The notes: generated from the sequence alone by a model not told the origin. Shown: positions 733 through 56,048, numbered from the stretch's first letter. The stretch is DNA of 64,000 bases from Escherichia coli (GCA_005400705.1 GCA_005400705.1_4079.1), one strand, 5' to 3'. Numbers and translations are program-made.

Positions 733-3700
733 ATGTATATCGATGCTTATATGGAACGTAAACGTACTGGTGATATTCTTCATGTAGTTGAACGTAAGAA
801 TGGTAAACGTATTCTACGCGAATTAGAACCAGTATATGAATATTATGTTGAATCCCCACAAGGAACACATAAAACTGTTTATGGTACAATGGCTAAACAT
901 TTTGAGTTTCAAACTCAAGCTCAAATGAATAAAAGTGTAGAGCAACACAAAAGTGAAGGTCTACGTATTTTTGAAAGTGATTGTAACATTACATTTAAAA
1001 CATTAGCTAAAGAATATATGGGAAAAGGTTCACCCGATTTGAACATCGTGTTCTTCGATATCGAGACTGATTTCCATAAGAAATTTGGTTATGCTCCACC
1101 ATCAGACCCGTTTAACCGAGTAACCGCTATTTCTCTATATCAATCATGGACTGGAAAGGATTATGTACTTACTTTACCACCTGCTGATATGGAAATTTAT
1201 GAAGCACAAGATATTGTTCGCCAACTAAATGAAGAAACAAACGATCCTAACAGTACTGTAATTTTATATACAGACGAAAAGGAAATGTTTATGGAATTCT
1301 TTAGTTTAATTGATGATTCTGATGTTATTTCAGGATGGAATAGTGAATTCTTTGATATTCCATATATGATCAATCGAACTAAAAAAATCTTCAATGAAGC
1401 AACAACTGCTCGTTGGTGTTTATGGAATAAAAAACCAAATTCACGTGAAGCAGACAACTTTGGTAAAACTGTTCAAACATATGATCTGGTAGGTCGCGTC
1501 CATCTTGATTATTTGGCTTTGTATAAGAAACATGCTGGTCAAGTTGAACAATCTTATAAACTAGATTATATTGCTGAAAAAGTAACTAAAGAAAATAAAG
1601 TATCATATGAAGGTTCATTGGATAAACTTTACAGAGAGGATTACATTACTTTCTTGCGTTATTCTAAACAGGATAGTATTCTTCTTAAAAAGATTGATGC
1701 TAAATGTGACTATATCAACCTACACAATCGACTTGCACACAAAGAATGTGTACTTATCAGTACAACAATGGGTTCAGTAGCACTAATCGACACTGCTATT
1801 ATCAACTTAGCACATACTCGTGGTGAAGTTGTTTTCAACAAAGCACCGAAAGATGATCTTGAGTTTGATCCAGAAATGGAATATTATGGTGAAGATGGTG
1901 AAGATGAAGATGAGAAAATTAGTGCAAAAGCAGCAGGTGCATGGGTACAAGATCCAGTACTAGGACTTGTAAGTGACCTTGGGTGTACTGACTTTAACTC
2001 TCTTTACCCTACTGTTCTACGTACTTTGGGTATGAGTACTGAATGTATTCTTGGTCAATTACGTCAAGATTACACCGATGCGTATCTTGCAGCTAAAATC
2101 CAAGAACAGAAGAACAAATCTAAATCTAAATCATTTGAACCAGATTGGACTGCGGCATGGCATGGTTTATTTGCTGCTGTTGAATTTACAATGGTTCATG
2201 AAAAGTCAGAAGAAACATTGATTGTTGATTTAGAAGATGGGAGTTCTTTTAAAGCAACGGGCAAAGAGCTATATGATATTATTTTTGCAGAAGATAGTAC
2301 TATTGTACTTAGTGCAAACGGAACACTTTTTGATAAGTCTAAGTCTGGTGTAATTCCTGACATTCTAACTCAATGGTATTCTGAACGTAAAGCACAGCAA
2401 AAAATGGTCATTGACTACAAACATATGTATACTGATGGTTGGGAGTTTAATGGCTATGAAAAAGTCGAACCACTACTATCAAACTATACCCCTGGTACAA
2501 TGTTTAGAACTAATATTCATGATAATGATCCTGTATACTTACTTCGTAAAGAAATTGGTAAAGGACAGTGGGATGAAGTTGCTAAGTTGATTGTAGAAAA
2601 CGGATTAGTACTAAAAGATGGTCGTATTTTCTGTCCTAAAGAAGAAAAAGATTACTTCAAACAACGTAGTGCTTTCTGGAAACAGAACCAACAGATTCGT
2701 AAGATTCTTCTAAACAGTCTATATGGTGCACTATTGAACAAAGGTTCTCGTTTTTTTGACAAACGTTTAGGTCAATCCGTAACATTAACTGGACGTTCTA
2801 TGACCAAACATATGGCAAGTCGTATCAATGAAATTACTACTGGTGTATATAACCACCAAGGTGGTTCAGTAATTTATGGTGATACTGACTCAGTTTACTT
2901 TAGTGTAACTCATTATCTGAAAGAACAAGGTATTCCATATAATCTATCTAAAGAAGAGATTGTTGATATGTATATTAAAATTGGTGAAGAAGTTGGTGAA
3001 TCTTTCCCATCATTTATGCATGAGATGTTCAACACTGGTATTGAAAAAGGTAAGATTGTTGGTGCAGACCTTGAGATGGTTGGTTCGCGTGGCCTATTCT
3101 TGAAGAAAAAACGTTATGCAATTCTGAAGTACTGGGAAGATGGGTTCCGTAAAGATATTGATGGTAAACCAGGTGAAATCAAAGCGATGGGTCTTGAAAT
3201 TAAACGCTCAGACACGCCAAAATACATCCAGAACTTCCTAGAAGAGACTCTAATCGCATTACTGGTAGGTGAGAGTGAACAACAGCTAAAACAGCGTGTA
3301 CGTGAGTTTAAGGACGTATTTAAGGATATGCCTGTACATGAAAAAGGTTCACCAAAAACTGTAAAAAACTACACTAATTTAGAGGCTGAATATCAGCTAA
3401 CTGGTAAGTGTAAAGTTGGTCACGTTCTTGCTGGTATCCAATGGAACCGTCTACGTGAAGTTTATGATGATAAATCTGTTCCAGAAGTAACAGATGGAAC
3501 AAAAGTAATTGTCTGTAACTTAAAAGATAATCCTATGGGAATTAAAGCAGTTGGTTATCCAATTGACTGTGTTGAGTATCTTCCAGAATGGTTCTTGGAA
3601 CTACCATTTGATACTGAAAAAATGGAAGAGATTGTTCTAACTAAAAAATTAGAGAATATTTTTGGTATTTTGGATATGGATATTGGTATTCATGAAAAAA

Positions 3701-3738
3701 GTACTGCGTCAGTAAACAATGGATTCTTCACTTGGTAA
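733..3738 (+). CDS. DNA polymerase, family B (T4 gp43-like) with 3'-5' exonuclease domain
   Basis: FFDIETD (Exo I), YSKQDS (Exo II), DFNSLYP (motif A), KILLNSLYG (motif B), YGDTDS (motif C) in 1001-aa ORF. Confidence 0.95.
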   Translation: MYIDAYMERKRTGDILHVVERKNGKRILRELEPVYEYYVESPQGTHKTVYGTMAKHFEFQTQAQMNKSVEQHKSEGLRIFESDCNITFKTLAKEYMGKGSPDLNIVFFDIETDFHKKFGYAPPSDPFNRVTAISLYQSWTGKDYVLTLPPADMEIYEAQDIVRQLNEETNDPNSTVILYTDEKEMFMEFFSLIDDSDVISGWNSEFFDIPYMINRTKKIFNEATTARWCLWNKKPNSREADNFGKTVQTYDLVGRVHLDYLALYKKHAGQVEQSYKLDYIAEKVTKENKVSYEGSLDKLYREDYITFLRYSKQDSILLKKIDAKCDYINLHNRLAHKECVLISTTMGSVALIDTAIINLAHTRGEVVFNKAPKDDLEFDPEMEYYGEDGEDEDEKISAKAAGAWVQDPVLGLVSDLGCTDFNSLYPTVLRTLGMSTECILGQLRQDYTDAYLAAKIQEQKNKSKSKSFEPDWTAAWHGLFAAVEFTMVHEKSEETLIVDLEDGSSFKATGKELYDIIFAEDSTIVLSANGTLFDKSKSGVIPDILTQWYSERKAQQKMVIDYKHMYTDGWEFNGYEKVEPLLSNYTPGTMFRTNIHDNDPVYLLRKEIGKGQWDEVAKLIVENGLVLKDGRIFCPKEEKDYFKQRSAFWKQNQQIRKILLNSLYGALLNKGSRFFDKRLGQSVTLTGRSMTKHMASRINEITTGVYNHQGGSVIYGDTDSVYFSVTHYLKEQGIPYNLSKEEIVDMYIKIGEEVGESFPSFMHEMFNTGIEKGKIVGADLEMVGSRGLFLKKKRYAILKYWEDGFRKDIDGKPGEIKAMGLEIKRSDTPKYIQNFLEETLIALLVGESEQQLKQRVREFKDVFKDMPVHEKGSPKTVKNYTNLEAEYQLTGKCKVGHVLAGIQWNRLREVYDDKSVPEVTDGTKVIVCNLKDNPMGIKAVGYPIDCVEYLPEWFLELPFDTEKMEEIVLTKKLENIFGILDMDIGIHEKSTASVNNGFFTW

Positions 3739-15956: not shown

Positions 15957-16775
15957 ATGACAAAATTAAATGAGTTTTTATCAAATGTAGCAGTTCTAGA
16001 TACTGAAACTACTGGGGTTGAGAGTGAAGATGATATTATTGAATTTAGTATCTCGTATCCACATACTTCACATGAAAACATTGATACTATTGATAACTAT
16101 ACATTGAGATACAAACCCTTGAAAGATATTCCACCAGAGGCATCTGCTGTGCACTTTATCAGTACTGAGGATGTAGCTAATTGTGTTGGGTATAAAGATG
16201 ATTTAGATAACATTGATGCACTTATGGGCTGCCGTAAGTATTTTGTTGGTCATAATGTACAATTTGACCGTAGAATGATGGTAGATAACGAATATAAATA
16301 TCGTAACTCAATTTCACAGTACTTACTTGATGAAAATAAATGGATTTGTACCCTTCGTCTTGCTAAGAAAATGTTCGCAGAAGATATTGAATTTAAAAAC
16401 TTAACTCTAAGTTATTTGTGGTATAAGTTTGGATGTTATCGTGATGTTCATCGACCTGTTAATGCACACGCAGCAAAAGACGATGTGTTTATGTGTTATC
16501 AGGTTCTAATCAAATTAGTTGAAATTGCAATCGAACGTGGATATATCGAACCTAATGGTGATATTGGTGAGCAAATTGTAACTTTCTGCAACACACCAAT
16601 GCGTTATCAATTCATGCCATTTGGTAAACACAAAGGTGAGCCAATGAGTACAGTTCCATTGAATTACATTGAATGGATGATTACTAATAGTGACATTTTA
16701 GATGCAAGTAACCCTAACTGTGATAAAGATTTAGTATATACATTTGAGTACGAATATAATACTCGAACTAATTAA
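15957..16775 (+). CDS. DEDDh 3'-5' exonuclease (DnaQ/ExoX-like) with C-terminal FGKHKG domain
   Basis: Exo I VLDTETTG, Exo II VGHNVQFD, Exo III HAAKDD; C-terminal FGKHKGEP...YIEWM. Confidence 0.7.
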   Translation: MTKLNEFLSNVAVLDTETTGVESEDDIIEFSISYPHTSHENIDTIDNYTLRYKPLKDIPPEASAVHFISTEDVANCVGYKDDLDNIDALMGCRKYFVGHNVQFDRRMMVDNEYKYRNSISQYLLDENKWICTLRLAKKMFAEDIEFKNLTLSYLWYKFGCYRDVHRPVNAHAAKDDVFMCYQVLIKLVEIAIERGYIEPNGDIGEQIVTFCNTPMRYQFMPFGKHKGEPMSTVPLNYIEWMITNSDILDASNPNCDKDLVYTFEYEYNTRTN

Positions 16776-19270: not shown

Positions 19271-20116
19271 GTGTTTGATTTCAGTGATATTAAAAATAAG
19301 TCGGTCGATGATGATGAAAAACCAACACAGCATTCTTTTTCTATTGCTGAATTTCTAAAACACATTGACCGTGCTGATTATAAGTACTATAATGACATGA
19401 CCGAAAAAGAACGAAAAGAGTTTACTCCATATACTGTTTTGCGATGGGTAAGCTCTTTAGATGATTCGTTACAAGTAACCTACCCTAGTAGTAAAGTTGA
19501 AAGTGTATTTGGAAAATGGAAATCTGGTGGTAAAGAAGCACTGACTGAACTAGTTACTGAATTAAAGTCTTCAGGGACAAATGTTTCATCAGTAACTAAG
19601 TACTGTCATAGTGATTATGATTGGCGTATTAAATTTGCAGTCCAATCAAAAGATGACGCACAAAAATTAATATCATCAATGGTCGAATTTGGTGTATCAG
19701 GTTCCGAAATTGTTTCATTGGTAGATACTGAAGTTGTCAAATACCAACTTATTATGCTAAATGATATGGTTAATGATGGATTTTGGGATATGAAAGAACA
19801 TCCAGAATTAGTATATCAGCTTATGTGTTCAGTGCATGATATGATTGGTGGACAAGAAATGCCACGTAACTGGTTAAACTTTTCTAAGAATTTCAAAAAA
19901 GCAAATAATGAATTATTTGAGTTAATTAAAAGCTCACAACCTGATACTATATCTACTCAAATGAATGAAGATGAGTACAAAATTGTTCTATTACAGTATG
20001 ATAAAAAAACATTTGAGACATTTCTTGACAATAATGGTTTTCAAGATAATGAAAAGAAATCTATGATGAAATTGTTTAAAGAAGAATGTAAAAAATATGG
20101 CAAAGAAATCAAGTAA
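19271..20116 (+). CDS. hypothetical protein (probable GTG start)
   Basis: GGAG 9 nt upstream of GTG 19271; first in-frame ATG is about 40 codons downstream. Confidence 0.45.
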   Translation: MFDFSDIKNKSVDDDEKPTQHSFSIAEFLKHIDRADYKYYNDMTEKERKEFTPYTVLRWVSSLDDSLQVTYPSSKVESVFGKWKSGGKEALTELVTELKSSGTNVSSVTKYCHSDYDWRIKFAVQSKDDAQKLISSMVEFGVSGSEIVSLVDTEVVKYQLIMLNDMVNDGFWDMKEHPELVYQLMCSVHDMIGGQEMPRNWLNFSKNFKKANNELFELIKSSQPDTISTQMNEDEYKIVLLQYDKKTFETFLDNNGFQDNEKKSMMKLFKEECKKYGKEIK

Positions 20117-20807
20117 CCAAGTATATACCTGTAGATTTTGTGATCGTGAATTTAAACGTGAAGAAACTGTAAACACACATAAATGTATAAAACGTGACCG
20201 ATACGAAGATCGCCAAAGCCGCCAGATGATGGAGGCTTTTCGTATATATATGCAATTTATGGAATTGAATAAGTTCCCATTTAAAAAAGGCGTAGAGCCT
20301 TTTATTGCTTTTATAAAGTCAAAGTACTTTAATGATTTTTATAATTTTGCCCAATACTATTTGAATAATAGAGATATTATTAATGTGGACGAGTTTGTAA
20401 AGTACTTGATTATCAATAACAAACCAATCACGGAATGGAGTACATATAAAGCAAAAGATGAATGGATATTAAAAACGATTCGTGCCGAGCACCCAAAAGA
20501 AGCAATTGCAAGAAGTGTTATCTCACTGGTTGAATGGGCTGAAAATTTGAATGTACAATGGAATACTTTCTTTGAAAATGTAAGTTCTGCTCGTGCAATT
20601 GCATGGATAGAGAGTGGTAAAATTTCACCTTGGATTATCTGGCTTGCTCCTAAAAAAAGTACTAATAAGTTTTTTAAAAAACTATCAAACTCAGAAATTG
20701 AATATATACTTAAATACATCGATCCAAGTTATTTTGAAATCAAAACTATAAAATACAAAAAGGATTGTGATGAAATTAAGATTATGCTATGTGAGGCAGG
20801 ATTATGA
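20097..20807 (+). CDS. hypothetical protein with N-terminal Cys/His zinc-finger-like motif
   Basis: YTCRFCDREFKREETVNTHKC. Confidence 0.45.
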   Translation: MAKKSSNQVYTCRFCDREFKREETVNTHKCIKRDRYEDRQSRQMMEAFRIYMQFMELNKFPFKKGVEPFIAFIKSKYFNDFYNFAQYYLNNRDIINVDEFVKYLIINNKPITEWSTYKAKDEWILKTIRAEHPKEAIARSVISLVEWAENLNVQWNTFFENVSSARAIAWIESGKISPWIIWLAPKKSTNKFFKKLSNSEIEYILKYIDPSYFEIKTIKYKKDCDEIKIMLCEAGL

Positions 20808-21133
20808 ATGGAAAAAGTATATATAATAAAATACCAGAAGGGTATGTACCTGTACCTAAAGAACAAAAATCAAAACAAATATCTCTACTTAGACAAGGAT
20901 CTATTACTGAAATAACTTTAGATGGTAAAACATTTCAAGTTCATGATCCTGCTCGTATTGAAAAAATTATTTCTTTGGTAGAAAGACACGAAGAACGATT
21001 TTTCAGTTTAAGTCAAGAGTTGGCAAAGACAAAACAAAATTGTAGACTATTAGAGAATCAAATATCAACTTTGACTAATACAGTTAAACAGTTACAGGAG
21101 CAAATAAAAAATGCAGGATTCGACCGATTCTAA
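20804..21133 (+). CDS. hypothetical coiled-coil protein
   Basis: 109 aa, heptad-like C-terminus. Confidence 0.4.
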   Translation: MNGKSIYNKIPEGYVPVPKEQKSKQISLLRQGSITEITLDGKTFQVHDPARIEKIISLVERHEERFFSLSQELAKTKQNCRLLENQISTLTNTVKQLQEQIKNAGFDRF

Positions 21134-21749
21134 ACATTATAGAAAAGCCCGAACTGATATTGACATTGACTTCAAGGATAGTAAAAGCGTAATTGCAAAA
21201 CTTCCTTGCGTGCGAAGTACTGAAAAAATTACGGAGGATGGTTTAATCCCCCATAATAGTGGTGTTCATTTTGATAATATACCAATTGATCCAATAACCG
21301 GATTGGCAAGTATACAATATAAAGAAGCTGAAAGTCTAGGATATCAAAAAGTTGATATTCTTTCACAGTCAGCTTACATGTATGTTCGTGATAGAGAGCA
21401 TTTAAAAGAACTAATGAATCAGGAACCAAATTGGGATCTATTATTAGAACCGGAAATTGTAGAACATCTTTCGCAAATTAAAAAACATGTAACTTTATTA
21501 AATGTATGGAAACCTAAATCCATAGACGAACTTGCAATGTTTATTGCAATGATACGCCCTGGAAAAAGGCAGTGCCAAAGTATGAACACATGGGACGAAG
21601 TTAAAGCCACCATATGGGATTATAGTACTATCGGCACTGACCAAGCAGGAAATAAATTACGATATTTCAAAAAGCCACATGCTTATGCATATAGCTTAAT
21701 GATTGTTGTACAACTAAATGCTTTAGTTGAACATCTTACTTCTTCTTAA
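21111..21749 (+). CDS. DnaE (Pol III alpha) core-like fragment, palm/fingers segment without catalytic Asp region
   Basis: GYQKVDILSQ (cf. GLVKFDFLGL), AMFIAMIRPGK (cf. IALVALFRPGP), FKKPHAYAYSL (cf. FNKSHSAAYAL), colinear. Confidence 0.5.
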   Translation: MQDSTDSKHYRKARTDIDIDFKDSKSVIAKLPCVRSTEKITEDGLIPHNSGVHFDNIPIDPITGLASIQYKEAESLGYQKVDILSQSAYMYVRDREHLKELMNQEPNWDLLLEPEIVEHLSQIKKHVTLLNVWKPKSIDELAMFIAMIRPGKRQCQSMNTWDEVKATIWDYSTIGTDQAGNKLRYFKKPHAYAYSLMIVVQLNALVEHLTSS

Positions 21750-23179: not shown

Positions 23180-24235
23180 ATGAACGCTGTACAAAACATA
23201 ATGGCACAAATTATGAATGATCCAGTACCTGCGATTGGTACATGGTCACGACACAACTGTCCAGCTTGTGTGTTCAGAGGACATTCAAGGCCGGATACAA
23301 AGCACCGTGGTAATCATATGTTCAATGCAGATGGTTCCGTTTCATATAACTGCTTTAACTGTAGTTTAAAAACTGGTTGGCAACCAGGAAAATATATGAG
23401 CAAAGATATGGAGTCTTTGCTCATTTCTTTTGGTGCACAAGATAAAGAAATAGAATTAGTTAAGTTTTATATTAAAGAAATGGTTGACAGCGGTGATTTT
23501 GCTGCACAAGAAACTGTTGCATCAAAATTGTATGACCGAGTAACAGTACGTGATTTGCCATCAAATGCAAAAACATTTTGGGAATGGGCTTCTTTACCTG
23601 AAGATAAAATTCCACAAGAATTTATAAGTGTTTTGCATAATGTCAATGAAAGAAACCCATATCTGTTAGACTTAGAATTATATTGGTCACCTAATAAAGA
23701 ACATAAAATGTATGACAGATTTATTATTCCATATTTCATGAATGGTAAAATTATTGGTTATACTGCACGACATAAATTAAAAGATCCTGGAAGTACATAC
23801 AGGTTCATAAATCAAGTAAGTACTAATATACTATATAACTATGATTTATTAAAAGATGAACGAATAAAAACAATTTTAGTATGTGAGGGTCCGTTAGACG
23901 CAGCATTAATGGGTGGTGTATCTGCTAATAACTTTAAATTATCAAACGTACAGATTGATGTATTAAAAGATGCACAGCAAAAAGGTAAAAAAATAGTTAT
24001 TGTTCCAGATAGAGATAAAGATGGATTAATAACTATAGATCAAGCACTTGAAAATGGATTCAGTGTTTCCTTCCCAGACTTTGGTGCTGTAAGAGAAGGT
24101 AGTACAATACGTCATATCAAGGACTTTGAAGAAGCTTGTGCACGATTTGGTAGGTTATTTTGTTTACAATTAATACATGATAGTATAGTAGATGAGCCAT
24201 TTTATATTAAAGCTCAAACGGATAAATGGATGTAA
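23180..24235 (+). CDS. DNA primase (T4 gp61-like; zinc ribbon + Toprim)
   Basis: CPACVF...CFNCS zinc ribbon; VCEGPLDA and IVIVPDRDKDG Toprim motifs. Confidence 0.8.
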   Translation: MNAVQNIMAQIMNDPVPAIGTWSRHNCPACVFRGHSRPDTKHRGNHMFNADGSVSYNCFNCSLKTGWQPGKYMSKDMESLLISFGAQDKEIELVKFYIKEMVDSGDFAAQETVASKLYDRVTVRDLPSNAKTFWEWASLPEDKIPQEFISVLHNVNERNPYLLDLELYWSPNKEHKMYDRFIIPYFMNGKIIGYTARHKLKDPGSTYRFINQVSTNILYNYDLLKDERIKTILVCEGPLDAALMGGVSANNFKLSNVQIDVLKDAQQKGKKIVIVPDRDKDGLITIDQALENGFSVSFPDFGAVREGSTIRHIKDFEEACARFGRLFCLQLIHDSIVDEPFYIKAQTDKWM

Positions 24236-24257: not shown

Positions 24258-25778
24258 ATGATTCAAAGCACAGTGGATGTGAAACAATATGGGATTAATG
24301 CACAACAATACTTATTATCTCAGATTTTCAGTAATCCTGATTTATATGTACGTTGTAAAAATATCCTTAAACCAGAATATTTTGATAAAACATTTCATGA
24401 AAGTATTCAATACGTGCATGATTATGCTGCAAAATATAGTTCATCACCTACTTTAAAAGATATTGAAGTTAAAGGTGGTTATCAATACGATCAATATGAA
24501 GTTCAAGAATTACATAAACAATCAGTACTTGATACATGTGGTGAATTTTGTCGCCATAAAGCATTAGCTTTAGCCGTTGAAAAAGGAATGGAACTTGTCC
24601 ATCAGAAAAAATATGGTGGAATCGAAGAACTAATCCGAGAAGCAATGTTGGTAACGGTACAGAATGAGTTAGGTTTGGATATTTTTGAAAACCCTGAAGA
24701 TACAATCCGCTCACTCAGTACAATGCAAGGGTCATTTAAGAGTGGTTGGGAAACTCTTGATTACAAACTTTTCGGTGGATTTGGGCGTAGAGAGTTAGAG
24801 ATCTTTGCTGCTGCATCAGGTGGTGGTAAATCAGTAGTACTGCAAAATTTAGCAGTTAACTTTGCGAAAGCTGGTATGAATGGTGCATACATTTCACTTG
24901 AACTAGCTGAAGAGTTGGTTGCTGTTCGTATCTATGGTATGATGACTGAATCAAAACTCAGTAACGTAAAAAATGAAGCTGAAAAGATTGGATTTGCTGT
25001 TAAAGTTGAAGGTAAAAACAGTGGTATGTTGCGTATTAAACGCTTACCTGAATCTGTAACAACCACTGACGATATTGAAAGTTATCTACGTGAATTACAA
25101 ATTAAGATGGAAATCAAACTTGATTATGTATGCGTGGACTATTTGGATCTATTAACTTCTAATCGTCTTGGACCAAATGATAAATCCAATACATTTACTA
25201 AAGATAAGTTTGTATCAGAAGAATTACGTGCACTTGCAACCAAAATGGATTTAACTGTTTTCACTGCATCTCAGTTTAACCGTAGTGGTATGGACGAAGA
25301 TAAGAAAAGTCAAAGTCAGATTGCTGGTGGTATTTCGAAAATTTATACTGCTGATAACGTAATTTATATTGAGGCACGAAAAGAAACTGGCGAACTATGG
25401 TTTGATTTCCAAAAAACACGTAACAGTAGTGCAGTAGGTTCCCGTTTGCGTATGTCATATGATATTGATTCATTGAGAGTTCTTGACCACGCAACTACAG
25501 TACAACAAATGGAAACCGAAGGTAATGGATTCCGTCACAGCGGTGTTTCTAAGATTGGTGGAGGGAATATGGCGTTACCACCCAGCACTATGCAAACATT
25601 ACGTCATACGCTTTCTGGTGCAGCTAAATCACCATCTGTGCAACCTGACAATACAGTAACACTAAATACTGATAGTGCTCCTAACTCTACGACACAAAAC
25701 GAAATACAGAATCCACAGACACATGCTGGTACTGATCGTGTTCATGCAATGAAGCAATGGTTAAATCAAAGGAAATGA
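24258..25778 (+). CDS. replicative DNA helicase (DnaB family, T4 gp41-like)
   Basis: Walker A AAASGGGKSV; Walker B DYVCVDYLD; SQFNRSG motif. Confidence 0.85.
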   Translation: MIQSTVDVKQYGINAQQYLLSQIFSNPDLYVRCKNILKPEYFDKTFHESIQYVHDYAAKYSSSPTLKDIEVKGGYQYDQYEVQELHKQSVLDTCGEFCRHKALALAVEKGMELVHQKKYGGIEELIREAMLVTVQNELGLDIFENPEDTIRSLSTMQGSFKSGWETLDYKLFGGFGRRELEIFAAASGGGKSVVLQNLAVNFAKAGMNGAYISLELAEELVAVRIYGMMTESKLSNVKNEAEKIGFAVKVEGKNSGMLRIKRLPESVTTTDDIESYLRELQIKMEIKLDYVCVDYLDLLTSNRLGPNDKSNTFTKDKFVSEELRALATKMDLTVFTASQFNRSGMDEDKKSQSQIAGGISKIYTADNVIYIEARKETGELWFDFQKTRNSSAVGSRLRMSYDIDSLRVLDHATTVQQMETEGNGFRHSGVSKIGGGNMALPPSTMQTLRHTLSGAAKSPSVQPDNTVTLNTDSAPNSTTQNEIQNPQTHAGTDRVHAMKQWLNQRK

Positions 25779-50191: not shown

Positions 50192-52585
50192 ATGACAACT
50201 TTTACCCCACGATGGGATATAAAAGCCGATGCTCGATATATACAAGAAGGACAAGACATTCTTGTGCGTTTGAGTATCAATAAAGAAAGCACAACGGATG
50301 ATAGCTATGTATTAAATGAAGATGAATACTTAGAAATGATTCTTAACATACAATGCTTGGATAGTTCAGGTGCTGTATTTGATCCAGAACCACATTATAC
50401 TTTTTATGTTGGTAATGACGAAAATACTTTTGTTCCTATTTCAGATGGTACAACTGGTAATAAATTAGTAAATGGTAAGCATAAGTGTAAAATCAGCAAA
50501 AATGAATTTAACTTATCTGCAAGTACTAATAGTGAAGATGTTTATTTTATAAAAATTCATTGTAAAAATGATGGAACCTATAATAATACAGAAATTATAA
50601 ATTTTTATTTACAAGCAGTAAATGTTATGTATTTTGGAAATATTTCACCAAGTGGTGTTCTAGGATTAACTGATACATCAATAACATATGATAGTCAAGA
50701 AGTTTGGGTTACACCCGGAGTTGAGATTGGTGATGACAAAAAGCTTTATTGTATTGGTGATGTTGAGTATGGCTCCAACAGTACATTGTTCGTTCAAGGA
50801 TTTGGAAGAAGACGACCTTTCATTTTGGGTACTGACATGACTACTGATATTACACCTCGTGTCTTTTTTCCAGCATATCGTTTGATTGACATGGATATTT
50901 CTGAAGTTCCAGATAAACATATTACGAATGATTTCGCAGTATTCAAGCCAGCACAATCAACATGGCCTATTTCTGGTATAAACAAAGAAGTAAAAGTTAA
51001 TATTCAAAATAGAAATGGTAATTTAATTGACACTGGAATGGTGTTCAACCCAAATGGGCAATTATTGCAAACATTTTTATATGACTCAGATGCTTGTGAT
51101 GCATATTTTAAAGTTGAGATTGTTGATATATTAAGTACATACACCGAAGAAAGTGAAAGGTTTGCTATCAATCAACGATATAAAGCATATCAAATGTGGG
51201 TTTGTCCTGAAGACATAGATACTATATATTCTATTTCAGAAAAACCACTACCCAATCATTTATATCAATTAAAAGATAATGTTGTGTATCCATACGTAAT
51301 TAGTGGTGAATACGATAATGGAACAATTAAGCCCGTTTATGATAGTAGTGATTGGATTGATTTAGGATATTATGACTCTACTCTTGGTGATAATATCATT
51401 GGTATGCAAAAAATGTTCAGGGTTTTGATAAACGCAGAAGAAGGTAATAATATAAACTTTATTACTGATAGTGATTTAGGAACCATACATGTTGGTGAAT
51501 ATTTTGGAGACAGTATATATCCTAAAATTGAAACTGATAGCTCTAATCAAGTTTCGTATGTTTTAGATGGTGGTGATGACATTAGAAAGTATGGGATAGA
51601 TTTGACACCAGATGGATATCTTGTAGGAACTGCATATGCCAAAAGTATTGATTTTAGTAAAAATGATGATATTAAATTATCGTTTTATGTTAAAGCATTT
51701 AGTACTGAAGGTGGTGAAGCAAGAAAAATATTTAACCTTAAGATTGTAAGAGGATTCGGACAGAATTATTTGAGTGCACATGTATTACCTTCGGTTGCAT
51801 TTGAGAGAGAATGGTTTAAATGTATAAGTACTTCATCATTCACTAATCAACTATTTTTCCGACAATCTGACAATAGATATGGTCTTCAGAAAATACCGAA
51901 GATGTTATTGAAAGAAAACTTCCTAAGTCAAACGTATCCATATACTAACCTTTCTGATATCAAGAAAGTATTGAGAAATAGTATAATTAACCCAAATGGA
52001 ACTACTATTCCAAATGGAAAATTTAAAATGGTAATGGGTAATTATAAAATAATATCAGCACTTGACAATCAAGGTAACTTACAATATGATCTATTATATA
52101 GAGAGGTTTTACCTGAAGGATCTTTAGTATCTGTATCCAAAAATCCACGTCAATATACTCAAATCGACAACGGTCAGCTTGGTGAATTATTTGGTTTACG
52201 ACAAAATATTTTTCAGGCTATTGGTGAAGACACAACCAACTTAGTAAAAGACCCAACCGATTTACAAAATCGTGGTCTATACGTTGATGCGATACCAAGT
52301 ATCAGTGATGAAATGCTTGATACGGTTCCAAGATTTATGAATCACCCATACATTGAAGATGGTATACAGAAAAAATTCATGCCTATCATTCCAGTTGCAT
52401 ATTGTCAACCAGGGAAAGGTGAAGCATTTTTCAACACTTTACTTCAGAACAATGAACATGGTACAATGGTAGGTGTAGAGTTCGAAATCACATCGGTTGA
52501 ATTCGGATACTTTTCGCATGAATCAGTGAATTATGTTTCAGATACATTTTTGATTACATTGCAAAACAATAACATAGGAGGTTAA
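50192..52585 (+). CDS. large beta-rich hypothetical protein (possible virion/tail-associated)
   Basis: 798 aa, N/G/T/S/Y-rich; GGAG RBS; late-type promoter; AT-rich codons. Confidence 0.55.
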   Translation: MTTFTPRWDIKADARYIQEGQDILVRLSINKESTTDDSYVLNEDEYLEMILNIQCLDSSGAVFDPEPHYTFYVGNDENTFVPISDGTTGNKLVNGKHKCKISKNEFNLSASTNSEDVYFIKIHCKNDGTYNNTEIINFYLQAVNVMYFGNISPSGVLGLTDTSITYDSQEVWVTPGVEIGDDKKLYCIGDVEYGSNSTLFVQGFGRRRPFILGTDMTTDITPRVFFPAYRLIDMDISEVPDKHITNDFAVFKPAQSTWPISGINKEVKVNIQNRNGNLIDTGMVFNPNGQLLQTFLYDSDACDAYFKVEIVDILSTYTEESERFAINQRYKAYQMWVCPEDIDTIYSISEKPLPNHLYQLKDNVVYPYVISGEYDNGTIKPVYDSSDWIDLGYYDSTLGDNIIGMQKMFRVLINAEEGNNINFITDSDLGTIHVGEYFGDSIYPKIETDSSNQVSYVLDGGDDIRKYGIDLTPDGYLVGTAYAKSIDFSKNDDIKLSFYVKAFSTEGGEARKIFNLKIVRGFGQNYLSAHVLPSVAFEREWFKCISTSSFTNQLFFRQSDNRYGLQKIPKMLLKENFLSQTYPYTNLSDIKKVLRNSIINPNGTTIPNGKFKMVMGNYKIISALDNQGNLQYDLLYREVLPEGSLVSVSKNPRQYTQIDNGQLGELFGLRQNIFQAIGEDTTNLVKDPTDLQNRGLYVDAIPSISDEMLDTVPRFMNHPYIEDGIQKKFMPIIPVAYCQPGKGEAFFNTLLQNNEHGTMVGVEFEITSVEFGYFSHESVNYVSDTFLITLQNNNIGG

Positions 52586-52586
52586 T

Positions 52587-52898
52587 ATGTTTAATCCGTT
52601 TTTTGACCCGTCTGGAATGACGGAAAAAGAACTACAGTTAAAAATTAATGAACAGTCTATGCGTTTAACTTCTGCTCGTGCTGCTGGCCTAAGCGACATG
52701 ATTATTGGTAATATGCAAACTGTCTTAAATCAATGTTATGCTGAACTAGAACTTCGCCAAGGACAAAAAGAAAAAACTGTTTATGACGAAGAAGACCCAT
52801 GTATCTTCGATATGGATTCATATCTAACTGACAACGAAGAGGCCCAGAAGAAGAAAAATGAAAGTACAAGGAAACAGATTTATAAGTCCCAATGGTGA
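52587..52898 (+). CDS. hypothetical protein
   Basis: 103-aa ORF overlapping next ORF by 41 nt. Confidence 0.35.
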   Translation: MFNPFFDPSGMTEKELQLKINEQSMRLTSARAAGLSDMIIGNMQTVLNQCYAELELRQGQKEKTVYDEEDPCIFDMDSYLTDNEEAQKKKNESTRKQIYKSQW

Positions 52899-53376
52899 TG
52901 TGAAATGTAATCTTAACGCAGTTGTTTATGCAATCAATTGCGGTGCAGATATCCAGTACTTACAATTGCAGGAAATTGATGAACCTGAAAGGTTGAAATT
53001 CAATGATAACTGTAAAAAATTTGGCTTAGAACAACGTATGCTGGATTATACAATTGAGCATGATAAAAATCATGAACTGTGGCGATATGATCCAGTATAC
53101 GACAAAATAAATCTGCGTGACTTTTTCTTACAAAAATGCACATCCGATGAAGCACGAAAACGTGTTGAGTATGAACTTGATTTATATGAATATTATAATA
53201 TGACAAAGCTACTAAGATGTATGATATGGCTTGTTGATTATATGGAAGAAAATGAGATCTTTTGGGGTCTAGGTCGTGGAAGCTCTGTTGCATCATACTG
53301 TTTGTTTTTGATTGGACTACATATGGTAGATTCATTGAAGTACGAACTTGATGTTAACGAATTTTTGAAATGGTAG
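52858..53376 (+). CDS. DnaE (Pol III alpha) core-like fragment ending just before catalytic-Asp region
   Basis: RVEYELDLYEYYNMTKLLRCMIWLVDYMEENEIFWGLGRGSSVASYCLFLIGL colinear with DnaE ...GPGRGSxAGSLVAY... palm segment. Confidence 0.5.
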   Translation: MKVQGNRFISPNGDVKCNLNAVVYAINCGADIQYLQLQEIDEPERLKFNDNCKKFGLEQRMLDYTIEHDKNHELWRYDPVYDKINLRDFFLQKCTSDEARKRVEYELDLYEYYNMTKLLRCMIWLVDYMEENEIFWGLGRGSSVASYCLFLIGLHMVDSLKYELDVNEFLKW

Positions 53377-53385
53377 AAAAACATG

Positions 53386-53394
53386 TGATATAAT
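53386..53394 (+). promoter_or_regulatory. extended -10 promoter (TGaTATAAT) inside inverted repeat
   Basis: tgtgatataa ... ttatatcaca inverted repeat (53384-53418). Confidence 0.45.
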
Positions 53395-53439
53395 GTTTAT
53401 TGTAGGCTTATATCACACATACAATAAAAGGATTTTGAT

Positions 53440-53784
53440 ATGTCTAAACATACAACTTATCGTGGTACAACAATTGACATGGATATGCTCAAGTACCAAA
53501 ATCAACATCAGGTAGCATTGGGTAATGCTAATCTAAACGCACGTGGTGATAAAATCGGTTCCGGTGGAACAATTATTAAAACTCGTGAAGAGTTGATTCA
53601 AGAAAAAGAACGAGAAATGCAAATTCCTGATTATATCCCTGAACATCAACTTCATAGTACTGAACATGGTACGGATGAAGTATGGGATGATGAGAGTTTT
53701 GAAGTTAAGCCCGAAGAACAAGAAGCTGAGGTTTCTGAAGAGAAGAAAGCACCACGTCGAGCTAGAACCAAAGATCAGGAGTAA
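53440..53784 (+). CDS. hypothetical protein
   Basis: 114 aa, acidic C-terminus. Confidence 0.45.
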   Translation: MSKHTTYRGTTIDMDMLKYQNQHQVALGNANLNARGDKIGSGGTIIKTREELIQEKEREMQIPDYIPEHQLHSTEHGTDEVWDDESFEVKPEEQEAEVSEEKKAPRRARTKDQE

Positions 53785-53792
53785 TATATTAA

Positions 53793-54119
53793 ATGACTAA
53801 TAAAGTAATGACTGCATGTAAAGGTAAAGTACTGGTAACTGAACTGGAACATGGTGAACGCAAAACAGCAGGTGGTATCGTTTTAACAAACGATGACGGT
53901 AAAATTAGAGGTATTCGTTCTCGCTGGGCAAAAGTTTATTCTGTAGGCGAAGACATTACTGATATTAAAGAAGGTCAATGGATTTTAATTGATCATGGTC
54001 GATGGTCAAGAACTATTGAAGTTGATGGTATTGAATTAAACTTGGTTGATTATCCAGCCGCAGTTAGTTTAGTTTCAGATGAAGATCCACGAACTAAAAT
54101 GCTAACCTTTGGTCGTTAA
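53793..54119 (+). CDS. second GroES/gp31-like co-chaperonin
   Basis: GKVLVTELEHGERKTAGGIVLT mobile-loop-like motif. Confidence 0.6.
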   Translation: MTNKVMTACKGKVLVTELEHGERKTAGGIVLTNDDGKIRGIRSRWAKVYSVGEDITDIKEGQWILIDHGRWSRTIEVDGIELNLVDYPAAVSLVSDEDPRTKMLTFGR

Positions 54120-54133
54120 TAAAATATAATTAA

Positions 54134-54160
54134 AGCTCGGATGAATATCTGGGCTTTTTA
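54134..54160 (+). terminator. terminator hairpin
   Basis: agctcgg-atgaatat-ctgggct + TTTTTATTT. Confidence 0.45.
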
Positions 54161-54175
54161 TTTGGACAGATTTTG

Positions 54176-54445
54176 ATGATAACTGATGATGGAAAATTTA
54201 GTTTCAAGGATGTAACATTAGTATCTAAAAACGGAAGATTCATGTTTGAAGATAGAAAAAATACCAAATATGTATATGAAGTTTCACATGATATGTTTAA
54301 AGTTTTATTAGTTGCATCAGCCCAAGCTGAAAGTACTGGGATTAAAAATAAGGCAAATTCTTTTAATTTTTTATTAAATCAATTGGAAATGACAGAAGAA
54401 CTTTTCACGGCTTTATTATATAATTCAGCCGATTGGATTCTATAA
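54176..54445 (+). CDS. hypothetical small protein
   Basis: about 89-aa ORF. Confidence 0.35.
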   Translation: MITDDGKFSFKDVTLVSKNGRFMFEDRKNTKYVYEVSHDMFKVLLVASAQAESTGIKNKANSFNFLLNQLEMTEELFTALLYNSADWIL

Positions 54446-54468
54446 CACGTACACATAAGGAAATACAA

Positions 54469-55422
54469 ATGACCACACTATGGACTGAAAAATATCGCCC
54501 ACAATCAATGGAAGATTATGTATCAAAAAACGATGCACTACGCCAGAAAATGGAAGAATGGATTAAGACTGGTGACATTCCACATATTGGGTTTTTTGGC
54601 CCAGCAGGAACTGGTAAAACATCTGCGATCAAAGTACTAATTAATGGACTAGTTCAAAATGGACACCTTGATCCAAGTGATGTGACCACGCTTAACATGT
54701 CCGATGAAGGCATTGATGCTGTTCGTGACAAAATCGATGCCGCAGCAAAGCTATCATGTTTTGGTAGATATCGTATTTTTGTTCTTGAAGAAATGGAGCA
54801 GATGAACCACAAAGCACAAGGTAGTTTGAAACGTGTAATGGAAGACTATCATGAAAATGCTCGCTTTATTTTAACAAGTAACGAACCACATAAAATTCAA
54901 AAACCTATCATTTCTCGTGTTCAAGTTATTACAATCGAAAAGCATGATATGGAACAATTCATGACTCGAATTTATAATATTCTTCTAGCAGAAGGTGTTG
55001 ATTTGAGTAGTGATGATAGTGTTGAACAAGTTCAAAAGTACATCAATGCTTCCTATCCTGATTTCCGTAAAACACTAAACGTATTGCAAAGTTCAGTTGT
55101 TGATGGTAAGCTAGTAAAACTTGAAGATAGTATTGAAAATTCAGCAGGGTATCGTACTGCAATTGTTGAAGCATTAAAGGCAGGCAACATTCGCCAAATG
55201 CGTGAACAAATTGTACAAAATATCCCTGATGATGAGATGGATGCATTTTTCTCTTACTTGTACAGAAATGCTGAAATGTTCAGTACTGATGAAATCACAC
55301 TGATGAAGATTAAAGTTAAAATTCGTGATGCAGTTGTTAAGCAAGCAACAGTATCAGACCGTGAAATGAATCTTAGTGCTTTACTGTGTGAGATTGACCT
55401 AATTTGTTCGGGGAACATGTAA
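54469..55422 (+). CDS. clamp loader ATPase subunit (RFC-like; T4 gp44-like)
   Basis: LWTEKYRP, Walker A GPAGTGKTS, Walker B FVLEEME, SRV sensor. Confidence 0.8.
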   Translation: MTTLWTEKYRPQSMEDYVSKNDALRQKMEEWIKTGDIPHIGFFGPAGTGKTSAIKVLINGLVQNGHLDPSDVTTLNMSDEGIDAVRDKIDAAAKLSCFGRYRIFVLEEMEQMNHKAQGSLKRVMEDYHENARFILTSNEPHKIQKPIISRVQVITIEKHDMEQFMTRIYNILLAEGVDLSSDDSVEQVQKYINASYPDFRKTLNVLQSSVVDGKLVKLEDSIENSAGYRTAIVEALKAGNIRQMREQIVQNIPDDEMDAFFSYLYRNAEMFSTDEITLMKIKVKIRDAVVKQATVSDREMNLSALLCEIDLICSGNM

Positions 55423-56048
55423 TGAAACCACGTTGTATAGTTTTTGATTGTGATGAAGTTCTATTGGACCATATGGGTATGCTTTCTGAGTTTGTAAAAC
55501 AAACTTATAATATCACACCATCAACACCATACCCATTAGAATATGATTTATCAGACTGGTTGGGTGTTCCTCAACCTGAAGTTAAAAAGATTCTTGAACA
55601 GTTCAACCAACAATCATATTTGTTTGGGTTGTTAAAGCCAGTCGAACCAAATACAGTTGATATTGTACAAGAGCTACGTGATCGTTTTCATAAAGAAAAA
55701 TTCGTAGTACTCACAAAATGTGGTAAAAAAGGCTATGGTGAAGTTTTACGAAATGTAAATCTAATGCGTGAATTTGGTGAAAACTGCTTTGATGAGATTA
55801 TTATCATAGAAATGAATGAATCAAAGAAAGAAGCATTAGAGGATTTACAAACACGATATGATGTAAAACTAATGATTGATGATTATATCAATAATATTGA
55901 AACTGCTATGGGTCTTGGTATTCCATCAGTTATGATGGGATGTTCTCATAATACTATGTATAAGAATCATAGTGGTTTTGAATATATCGAAAACTGGACA
56001 GAACTTAGACTGAAAATTTATTCAGTACTAGGTAAATATTACAAATAA
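55422..56048 (+). CDS. HAD-superfamily hydrolase, 5'(3')-deoxyribonucleotidase-like
   Basis: Motif I IVFDCDEVLLD; later KLMIDDY. Confidence 0.55.
   Translation: MKPRCIVFDCDEVLLDHMGMLSEFVKQTYNITPSTPYPLEYDLSDWLGVPQPEVKKILEQFNQQSYLFGLLKPVEPNTVDIVQELRDRFHKEKFVVLTKCGKKGYGEVLRNVNLMREFGENCFDEIIIIEMNESKKEALEDLQTRYDVKLMIDDYINNIETAMGLGIPSVMMGCSHNTMYKNHSGFEYIENWTELRLKIYSVLGKYYK

Follow-up and report, generated by a model that had tools for sequence, protein, structure and literature searches.

What is a DnaE-like protein of 172 residues doing in a phage that encodes a family-B DNA polymerase, and can it belong to a working enzyme? The question is raised by the ORF at 52858..53376 (+) of the window, a stretch of 64,000 nucleotides filed under Escherichia coli (GCA_005400705.1). 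An earlier note on this DNA read the ORF as a captured or repurposed polymerase fragment, listed a second fragment at 21111..21749 and spoke of a missing middle segment. The window phage is an Asteriusvirus (PBECO4/121Q-like). Positions 52000-54500 are 99.5-100% identical to Rak2-like jumbo coliphages and Salmonella phages of Asteriusvirus (SD-1_S14, PBECO4, 121Q, phAPEC6). The B-family polymerase expected by the note is present at 733..3738 (+; 1001 aa; PF03104 E 3.8e-23, PF00136 E 1.3e-21). It is the presumed main replicase and is labelled 'DNA polymerase' (gp512) in PBECO4. Both DnaE-like ORFs, here called the N-half and the C-half of a split minimal Pol III alpha, already carry the label 'DNA polymerase' in the PBECO4 RefSeq record (gp449, gp488).

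The N-half (52858..53376, +; 172 aa, ATG start) has a match to PF07733 DNA_pol3_alpha in Pfam that clears the curated threshold of 23.9 with 38 bits (E 1.8e-9) and places residues 92-171 on profile positions 16-95 of 260. It also matches phrog_11127 'DNA polymerase' end to end (PHROGs, E 3.7e-87). BLASTP aligns residues 98-170 with residues 320-392 of E. coli DnaE, taken from NC_000913. When a profile of 111 homologues is compared with a four-sequence DnaE alignment in hhalign, residues 17-172 correspond to DnaE 207-394 (probability 96%, E 2.7e-9). The GRGSS motif at residues 139-143 (53272..53286, +; translation checked) aligns with E. coli GPGRGS 359-364 and is equivalent to the G361-R362-G363-S364 loop. 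Besides this nucleotide-triphosphate-binding loop, the N-half carries helices of the palm. The segment quoted in the earlier note is residues 102-154, and its description as a DnaE palm-like fragment colinear with the GRGS region is confirmed.

The similarity is not confined to a low-complexity stretch, since 15 columns are unvaried in the 111 homologues, which reach down to approximately 33% identity. The unvaried positions include GxGRGSS (the GRGSS loop in 111 of 111), R102, E106 and H155. Judged from sequence, the match to DnaE is far above chance or low complexity. The AF2 model of the N-half has a pLDDT of 88. In a Foldseek search of the PDB with this model, the top 12 hits are all Pol III alpha or PolC, and these hits are weak (best E 0.12). 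The N-half ends in EFLKW* at about DnaE 394, approximately 6 residues short of PDFDVDF (DnaE 400-406). The ORF does stop just before the catalytic aspartates, as the note had it. The N-half by itself is without the three catalytic aspartates, which are found in its partner ORF.

The second fragment is also real. The C-half (21111..21749, +; 212 aa) matches phrog_11778 'DNA polymerase' (PHROGs, E 4.7e-108) and provides all three catalytic aspartates together with the remainder of the palm and pared-down fingers. Its N-terminus is MQDSTDSKHYRKARTDIDIDF. A 15-residue lead is followed by DIDID at residues 16-20 (21156..21170, +; translation checked), the equivalent of E. coli D401-F-D403-V-D405. 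This motif includes the first two catalytic aspartates (D16 and D18, equivalent to D401 and D403), and D16, D18 and D20 are unvaried in 117 of 117 homologues. The third catalytic aspartate, D82, lies in KVD at residues 80-82 (21348..21356, +), which hhalign pairs with E. coli K553-F-D555. D82 is unvaried in the 117 homologues and K80 is at least 90% conserved. The hhalign pairing places QKVDIL opposite VKFDFL of DnaE (K553, D555). PHNSGV lies opposite KHAGGV (H511), IRPGK opposite FRPGP (639-642) and FKKPHA opposite FNKSHS (756-761). The remaining unvaried positions listed are H48, G51, R149, P150, K152, H190 and Y194.

By sequence alone, the C-half is barely recognisable. Pfam gives PF17657 (fingers) at E 0.045, a simple HMM made from four full-length DnaE proteins misses it (E 4.3), and a profile search of the PDB gives E 0.0095 in four colinear segments on M. 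tuberculosis DnaE1. The predicted fold has a pLDDT of 93. The structural neighbours of the model are replicative C-family polymerases only, with no other nucleotidyltransferases among them. The assignment of the C-half is based on the predicted fold and the colinearity of the motifs, and the sequence-only evidence for it is weak.

The C-half begins almost exactly at the DnaE position where the N-half stops. When the two proteins are concatenated, BLASTP aligns them across the junction to DnaE 320-406 with DIDIDF opposite DFDVDF. The PF07733 match grows from profile positions 16-95 at 38 bits for the N-half alone to 16-112 at 45 bits. The missing middle segment of the note does not exist: the C-half opens with the DxDxD motif after 15 residues, the PF07733 match runs through the junction, and natural fusions of the two halves (336-376 aa) hold nothing extra.

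Together, the halves comprise 384 aa of palm and reduced fingers. The thumb, which in E. coli is inserted in the palm at approximately 433-510, is gone; there are approximately 27 residues between DIDID and H48 (equivalent to E. coli H511) versus approximately 105 in E. coli, and the hhalign alignment splits at this gap. The pair also seems to lack approximately 80 residues from the middle of the DnaE fingers. Everything past about E. coli residue 780 is absent, including the duplex-binding, clamp-binding, OB and tau-binding parts. Neither half has a match to PHP (PF02811) or another Pol III domain at E<=1. A four-sequence DnaE HMM finds no further DnaE-like segment among the 533 reading-frame segments of the window. 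The split pair is an intrinsically minimal family, in which the absent DnaE parts are lacking family-wide and are not hidden elsewhere in the window.

In an exhaustive search with the C-half, there are two long matches, P0309 (375 aa) and P0374 (336 aa), each of which contains an N part and a C part. The linker between the fused halves is 10 residues or none. At the P0309 junction the sequence is ...GVGRGSS...EFIKDNKEGIYNIADFDIDTKN..., and the protein matches PF07733 at 59.6 bits over both the GRGSS and the DFDID motifs. Two relatives, P0390 and P0391 (375-376 aa), are 78-81% identical to P0309. Because at least four independent metagenome contigs carry this lineage, an assembly error is excluded for P0309. 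P0309 and P0374 are 29% identical to one another and each is nearer to the standalone proteins (C-part identities of 59% and 38%, respectively), which argues that fusion or fission has occurred at least twice. These fusions are the strongest evidence here that both window ORFs would make one enzyme.

The single-chain genes of 375-376 aa lie at L004 1066..2193, L006 519..1649, L007 1827..2957 and L008 1292..2422. In L007 and L008, a PF00145 cytosine DNA methylase gene is directly upstream of the fused gene. The P0374 gene overlaps an upstream gene for a 552-aa PF03090 'Replicase' by 4 nt (L005 1516..4181, a JGI metagenome contig of 7992 bp). The P0374 pair suggests a small element that joins a replication initiator or primase with a minimal polymerase, and the overlap fits a DNA-synthesis role. 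Two further candidates for related architectures are rejected. P0403 and P0404 (540-551 aa, PHP plus palm) are not intermediates; they are truncated ordinary DnaE, and their 90% cluster has a member of 1140 aa. L009 and L011 have the standalone C-halves most closely related to the fused form, and an N-half directly upstream of them would have marked a recent fission; the upstream ORF there is a C2H2 zinc-finger protein.

A Pol III alpha made from two distant genes is also found in the cyanobacterial split DnaE (Ssp/Npu). There, the halves bear intein pieces and are spliced to the full-length enzyme. In the cyanobacterial protein the split point lies far downstream, and the phage split, which has no intein, is inside the palm active site. 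The possibility that the phage halves are joined covalently, by split-intein trans-splicing or as one chain through recoding, has precedent both in split DnaE, the classic case of joining by a split intein (PMC2664965), and in the relatives MIJ3 and PA5oct, which have an intein in the family-B polymerase (PMC6892783). Against this, the N-half ends 0-2 residues past the last DnaE-homologous residue and only 15 residues precede DIDID in the C-half, which leaves no room at either broken end for intein pieces of approximately 100 aa or 35 aa. The junction is equal in length to that of the fused homologues, EFIKDNKEGIYNIADFDID. Recoding is excluded by the 31.7 kb and dozens of genes between the halves. 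The probability of covalent joining is close to negligible, and at the sequence level the split-intein reading is already refuted.

Both halves are widely distributed. At E<=1e-3, a protein database search gives 177 relatives for the N-half and 796 for the C-half. In the best 120 of the 177 and the best 120 of the 796, nearly all are standalone proteins of approximately 170-187 aa (N-half) and 190-220 aa (C-half); shorter sequences among these are partial. The 111 aligned N-half homologues span 165-190 aa, and the 117 aligned C-half sequences reach down to approximately 41% identity. The exhaustive profile search with the C-half gives 522 clusters at 50% identity. The C-half is found in 96 phage records and the N-half in 120, 25 of which are Bacillus or Streptomyces phages; among the N-half matches listed, these phages carry full-length DnaE. 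Approximately 95 phage genomes contain both halves. By host genus, the C-half and N-half records number 34 and 34 for Escherichia, 11 and 10 for Klebsiella, 11 and 11 for Pseudomonas, 8 and 8 for Salmonella and 8 and 8 for Erwinia, so that only Klebsiella differs.

In the window phage, the gene starts at 52858 and 21111 are 31.7 kb apart on the same strand. The halves are never adjacent in the other phages, where 11-182 kb lie between the genes (30 kb in 121Q, 33 kb in RaK2, 43 kb in PA5oct, 182 kb in Atu_ph07, 14 kb in Stenotrophomonas phage CM1 and 10.8 kb in the Alishewanella phage Slickus01). The C-half is upstream of the N-half in the Rak2-like, PA5oct-like, Atu_ph07 and Stenotrophomonas phages. 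This order is not a rule, and in Slickus01 the N-half is 10.8 kb upstream. The Slickus01 genome (141,644 bp; L017 18347..30309) places a split mini polymerase well below the usual jumbo size of 200 kb. Its order is N-half, then further on RFC, a small ORF, a zinc-finger-like ORF, a small ORF and the C-half, with primase/helicase beyond, and it may lie nearer to an ancestral state in which the replication genes formed a single cluster.

The small sizes of the ORFs (172 and 212 aa, versus 1160 aa for E. coli DnaE) would fit decaying, functionless pieces left from a dnaE gene, of phage or host, that was once complete, and the 172-aa DnaE-like protein is called 'truncated' in earlier genome papers, including the CBB genome paper (PMC5259590). 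This is very unlikely. Lengths are fixed and active-site residues unvaried over hundreds of clusters down to approximately 33-41% identity, both predicted folds are confident, the halves are kept together in several divergent phage lineages, and the fused forms have the same minimal size. The G+C of both genes is 0.34, the same as that of the window, and an AG-rich, Shine-Dalgarno-like sequence is upstream of both starts. Conservation, distribution, G+C and the Shine-Dalgarno-like sequences rule out decaying remnants or a recent capture, and the conservation pattern alone already effectively refutes decay. The captured or repurposed fragment of the earlier note is replaced by a subunit of a conserved two-gene enzyme that is spread over a broad clade of phages. 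On the sequence evidence, the two ORFs probably encode a two-subunit minimal C-family (Pol III alpha-type) nucleotidyltransferase that is likely accessory to the family-B replicase.

In the window, the family-B polymerase is accompanied by a gp32-like SSB, a DnaB-like helicase, a primase and an RFC-like clamp loader. The N-half gene lies between topoisomerase II genes and the gene for an RFC/gp44-like clamp-loader ATPase (54433..55422, +; PF13177, PF00004, PF21328), which is 1 kb downstream and is labelled 'clamp loader of DNA polymerase' in PBECO4. A Cpn10/GroES-like gene (53793..54119, +; PF00166 E 2.2e-5) is found between the N-half and the clamp loader, and a 5'(3')-deoxyribonucleotidase-like gene (55404..56048, +; PF06941 E 1e-8) is immediately downstream of the clamp loader. 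The primase gene (23180..24235, +; 'DNA primase subunit' in PBECO4) is 1.4 kb downstream of the C-half and is followed by the DnaB-like helicase gene (24258..25778, +; PF03796 DnaB_C E 3.3e-17). The full array around the C-half consists of a C2H2 zinc-finger gene, a small ORF, the C-half, a reverse-strand ORF, a 'structural' protein, the primase and the helicase. This array, including the order from C-half to primase/helicase, recurs in PA5oct, Atu_ph07 and Slickus01, and in Slickus01 the same cluster has clamp-loader genes. Promoter and terminator scans around both genes give counts at shuffle expectation (41 vs 37 and 39 vs 38), and no inference on timing is drawn from them.

The split minimal Pol III alpha in this window is already known, having been described in 2021 by comparative genomics. 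Sections 3.4.1 and 3.5 of Iyer, Anantharaman, Krishnan, Burroughs and Aravind (2021, Viruses 13:63, PMC7824862) report a 'split minimal Pol III alpha' in the group 2.2 jumbo phages. In these sections, the N-terminal unit, which binds NTP, and the C-terminal unit, which binds Mg2+ and template, are standalone, are encoded by distant genes and are without other Pol III domains. The split enzyme is found beside a family-B polymerase, with which cooperation in strand synthesis or repair is suggested, and the minimal enzyme is proposed as a picture of the ancestral enzyme. Compared with that description, the window system is the same and nothing essential differs. The window phage belongs to the same family as the group 2.2 phages named in those sections, such as Atu_ph07, and contains the two standalone, distant genes together with a family-B polymerase and a set of T4-like replication genes. 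These sections do not mention the two unrelated fusion types, the zinc-finger neighbour, the placement near clamp-loader and primase-helicase genes, or the 141-kb Slickus01. Experimental work on the split enzyme was not found in the searchable literature, where later genome papers merely list 'DNA polymerase III'.

The split pair shares with DnaE and PolC a homologous palm, the GRGS loop, the aspartate triad (E. coli D401, D403, D555) and the fingers motifs RPG and FNKSH. DnaE and PolC are single chains of approximately 1100-1450 aa, whereas the phage enzyme has 384 aa in two chains, with a chain break that separates the GS loop from the DxD strand. It is without PHP, thumb, duplex-binding/HhH, clamp-binding motif, OB and tau-binding domain. 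Phage-encoded C-family polymerases are also present as full-length DnaE in the Bacillus and Streptomyces phages and in the group 3.2 jumbo phages, and the N-half detects full-length phage DnaE by tblastn at E of about 1e-4. In contrast to the split pair, the full-length phage DnaE is a single chain of approximately 1120-1160 aa and the main replicase of the phage. Among the matches listed, DnaE of Bacillus phage PK-3 is the only domain-annotated one, and its annotation is a PHP domain.

The two-piece enzyme could also be an active nucleotidyltransferase that is not a templated DNA polymerase. As such, it would make use of a bare Pol-beta-like palm from which the DNA-holding domains have been lost, and it might be a template-independent terminal transferase, a primer or oligonucleotide synthase, or the maker of a nucleotide signal or modification in phage-host conflict. 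[quoted passage not shown] Templated synthesis is not assured because the thumb and duplex-binding domains, which hold the primer-template in Pol III alpha and PolC, are absent. The palm has a Pol-beta-like nucleotidyltransferase fold, to which many non-polymerase enzymes belong according to the sections of Iyer et al. (2021, PMC7824862) cited above. However, the non-palm parts that are kept are DnaE fingers motifs (RPG 639-641, FNKSH 756-760), unvaried or nearly so, the structural neighbours are replicative C-family polymerases only, and the genes lie amid replication genes with no defence or counter-defence genes. Non-templated activity is possible but rather unlikely, and template-directed DNA synthesis is favoured because the DnaE-specific fingers motifs are kept in a replication-gene context.

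In a templated, two-subunit C-family enzyme, the palm sheet and the active site would be shared by two polypeptides, and non-covalent association without an intein would be required for activity. The N subunit would provide the strand and helix that come first in the Pol-beta-like palm, including the GRGSS loop, in which the incoming nucleotide's triphosphate would be held. The other palm strands, on which the metal-binding aspartates D16, D18 and D82 lie, would come from the C subunit, which would also retain the fingers remnants RPGK and FKKPHAxAY. The assembled palm is predicted to bind two metals and a (d)NTP and to transfer nucleotides. A weak grip on DNA and low processivity are predicted because the thumb and duplex-binding domains are lost. 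If DNA is polymerised, synthesis would be distributive and without proofreading of its own. The enzyme may perform short primer extension, gap filling or recombination-linked synthesis in the phage replisome, beside the family-B replicase. An accessory role is most likely because an intact family-B polymerase with its own exonuclease domain is present.

The PHP domain, absent from both halves, is the usual docking site of epsilon. A standalone DnaQ/RNase T-type 3'-5' exonuclease is encoded at 15957..16775 (+; PF00929 E 7e-15, with a C-terminal QSregVF_b-like segment), and PBECO4 labels it 'DNA polymerase exonuclease subunit'. Proofreading for the mini polymerase, which has no exonuclease, could come from this protein, although the PHP domain is absent.

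The zinc-finger gene upstream of the C-half (20097..20807, +) encodes a candidate partner of 236 aa (phrog_11058, function unknown). Homologues directly or closely upstream of the C-half are found in PA5oct (E 1.8e-38), Atu_ph07 (E 3.8e-30), L011 (E 1e-25) and L009 (E 1e-10). The gene's place near and upstream of the C-half is conserved across Rak2-like phages, PA5oct, Atu_ph07, Phosso and two metagenomic phages (L009 and L011). The protein is found in 94 phage records and its genus distribution is the same as that of the C-half. This pattern suggests that the zinc-finger protein may be a partner of the mini polymerase, and shared ancestry alone could explain it. A more specific proposal, that the protein is a third subunit replacing the thumb and duplex-binding domains in a three-part, dedicated primer-extension polymerase of the primase-helicase module, an analogue of eukaryotic Pol alpha that passes short pieces of DNA on to the family-B replicase, is speculative and improbable. 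If it were true, the independent fusions or fissions would show the assembly of a minimal C-family polymerase from parts.

A 281-aa ORF (19271..20116, +) lies upstream of the zinc-finger gene. By eye, the C-terminal part of its product is like small proteins encoded ahead of the zinc-finger gene in PA5oct and Slickus01 (L013 1805..2272; L016 1461..1889). The Slickus01 small protein directly follows the RFC gene. Proteins of this type may be a clamp-loader small subunit.

If active, the two-gene enzyme would be by far the smallest C-family polymerase, with approximately 384 residues in two chains and an active site split without an intein. The split enzyme is a natural minimal model for the working and evolution of the bacterial replicase core. 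Single chains of the P0309 and P0374 types are ready-made constructs for a first biochemical test. For the phages themselves, the finding raises the question of why a genome with a complete T4-type family-B replisome keeps a second, bacterial-type polymerase.
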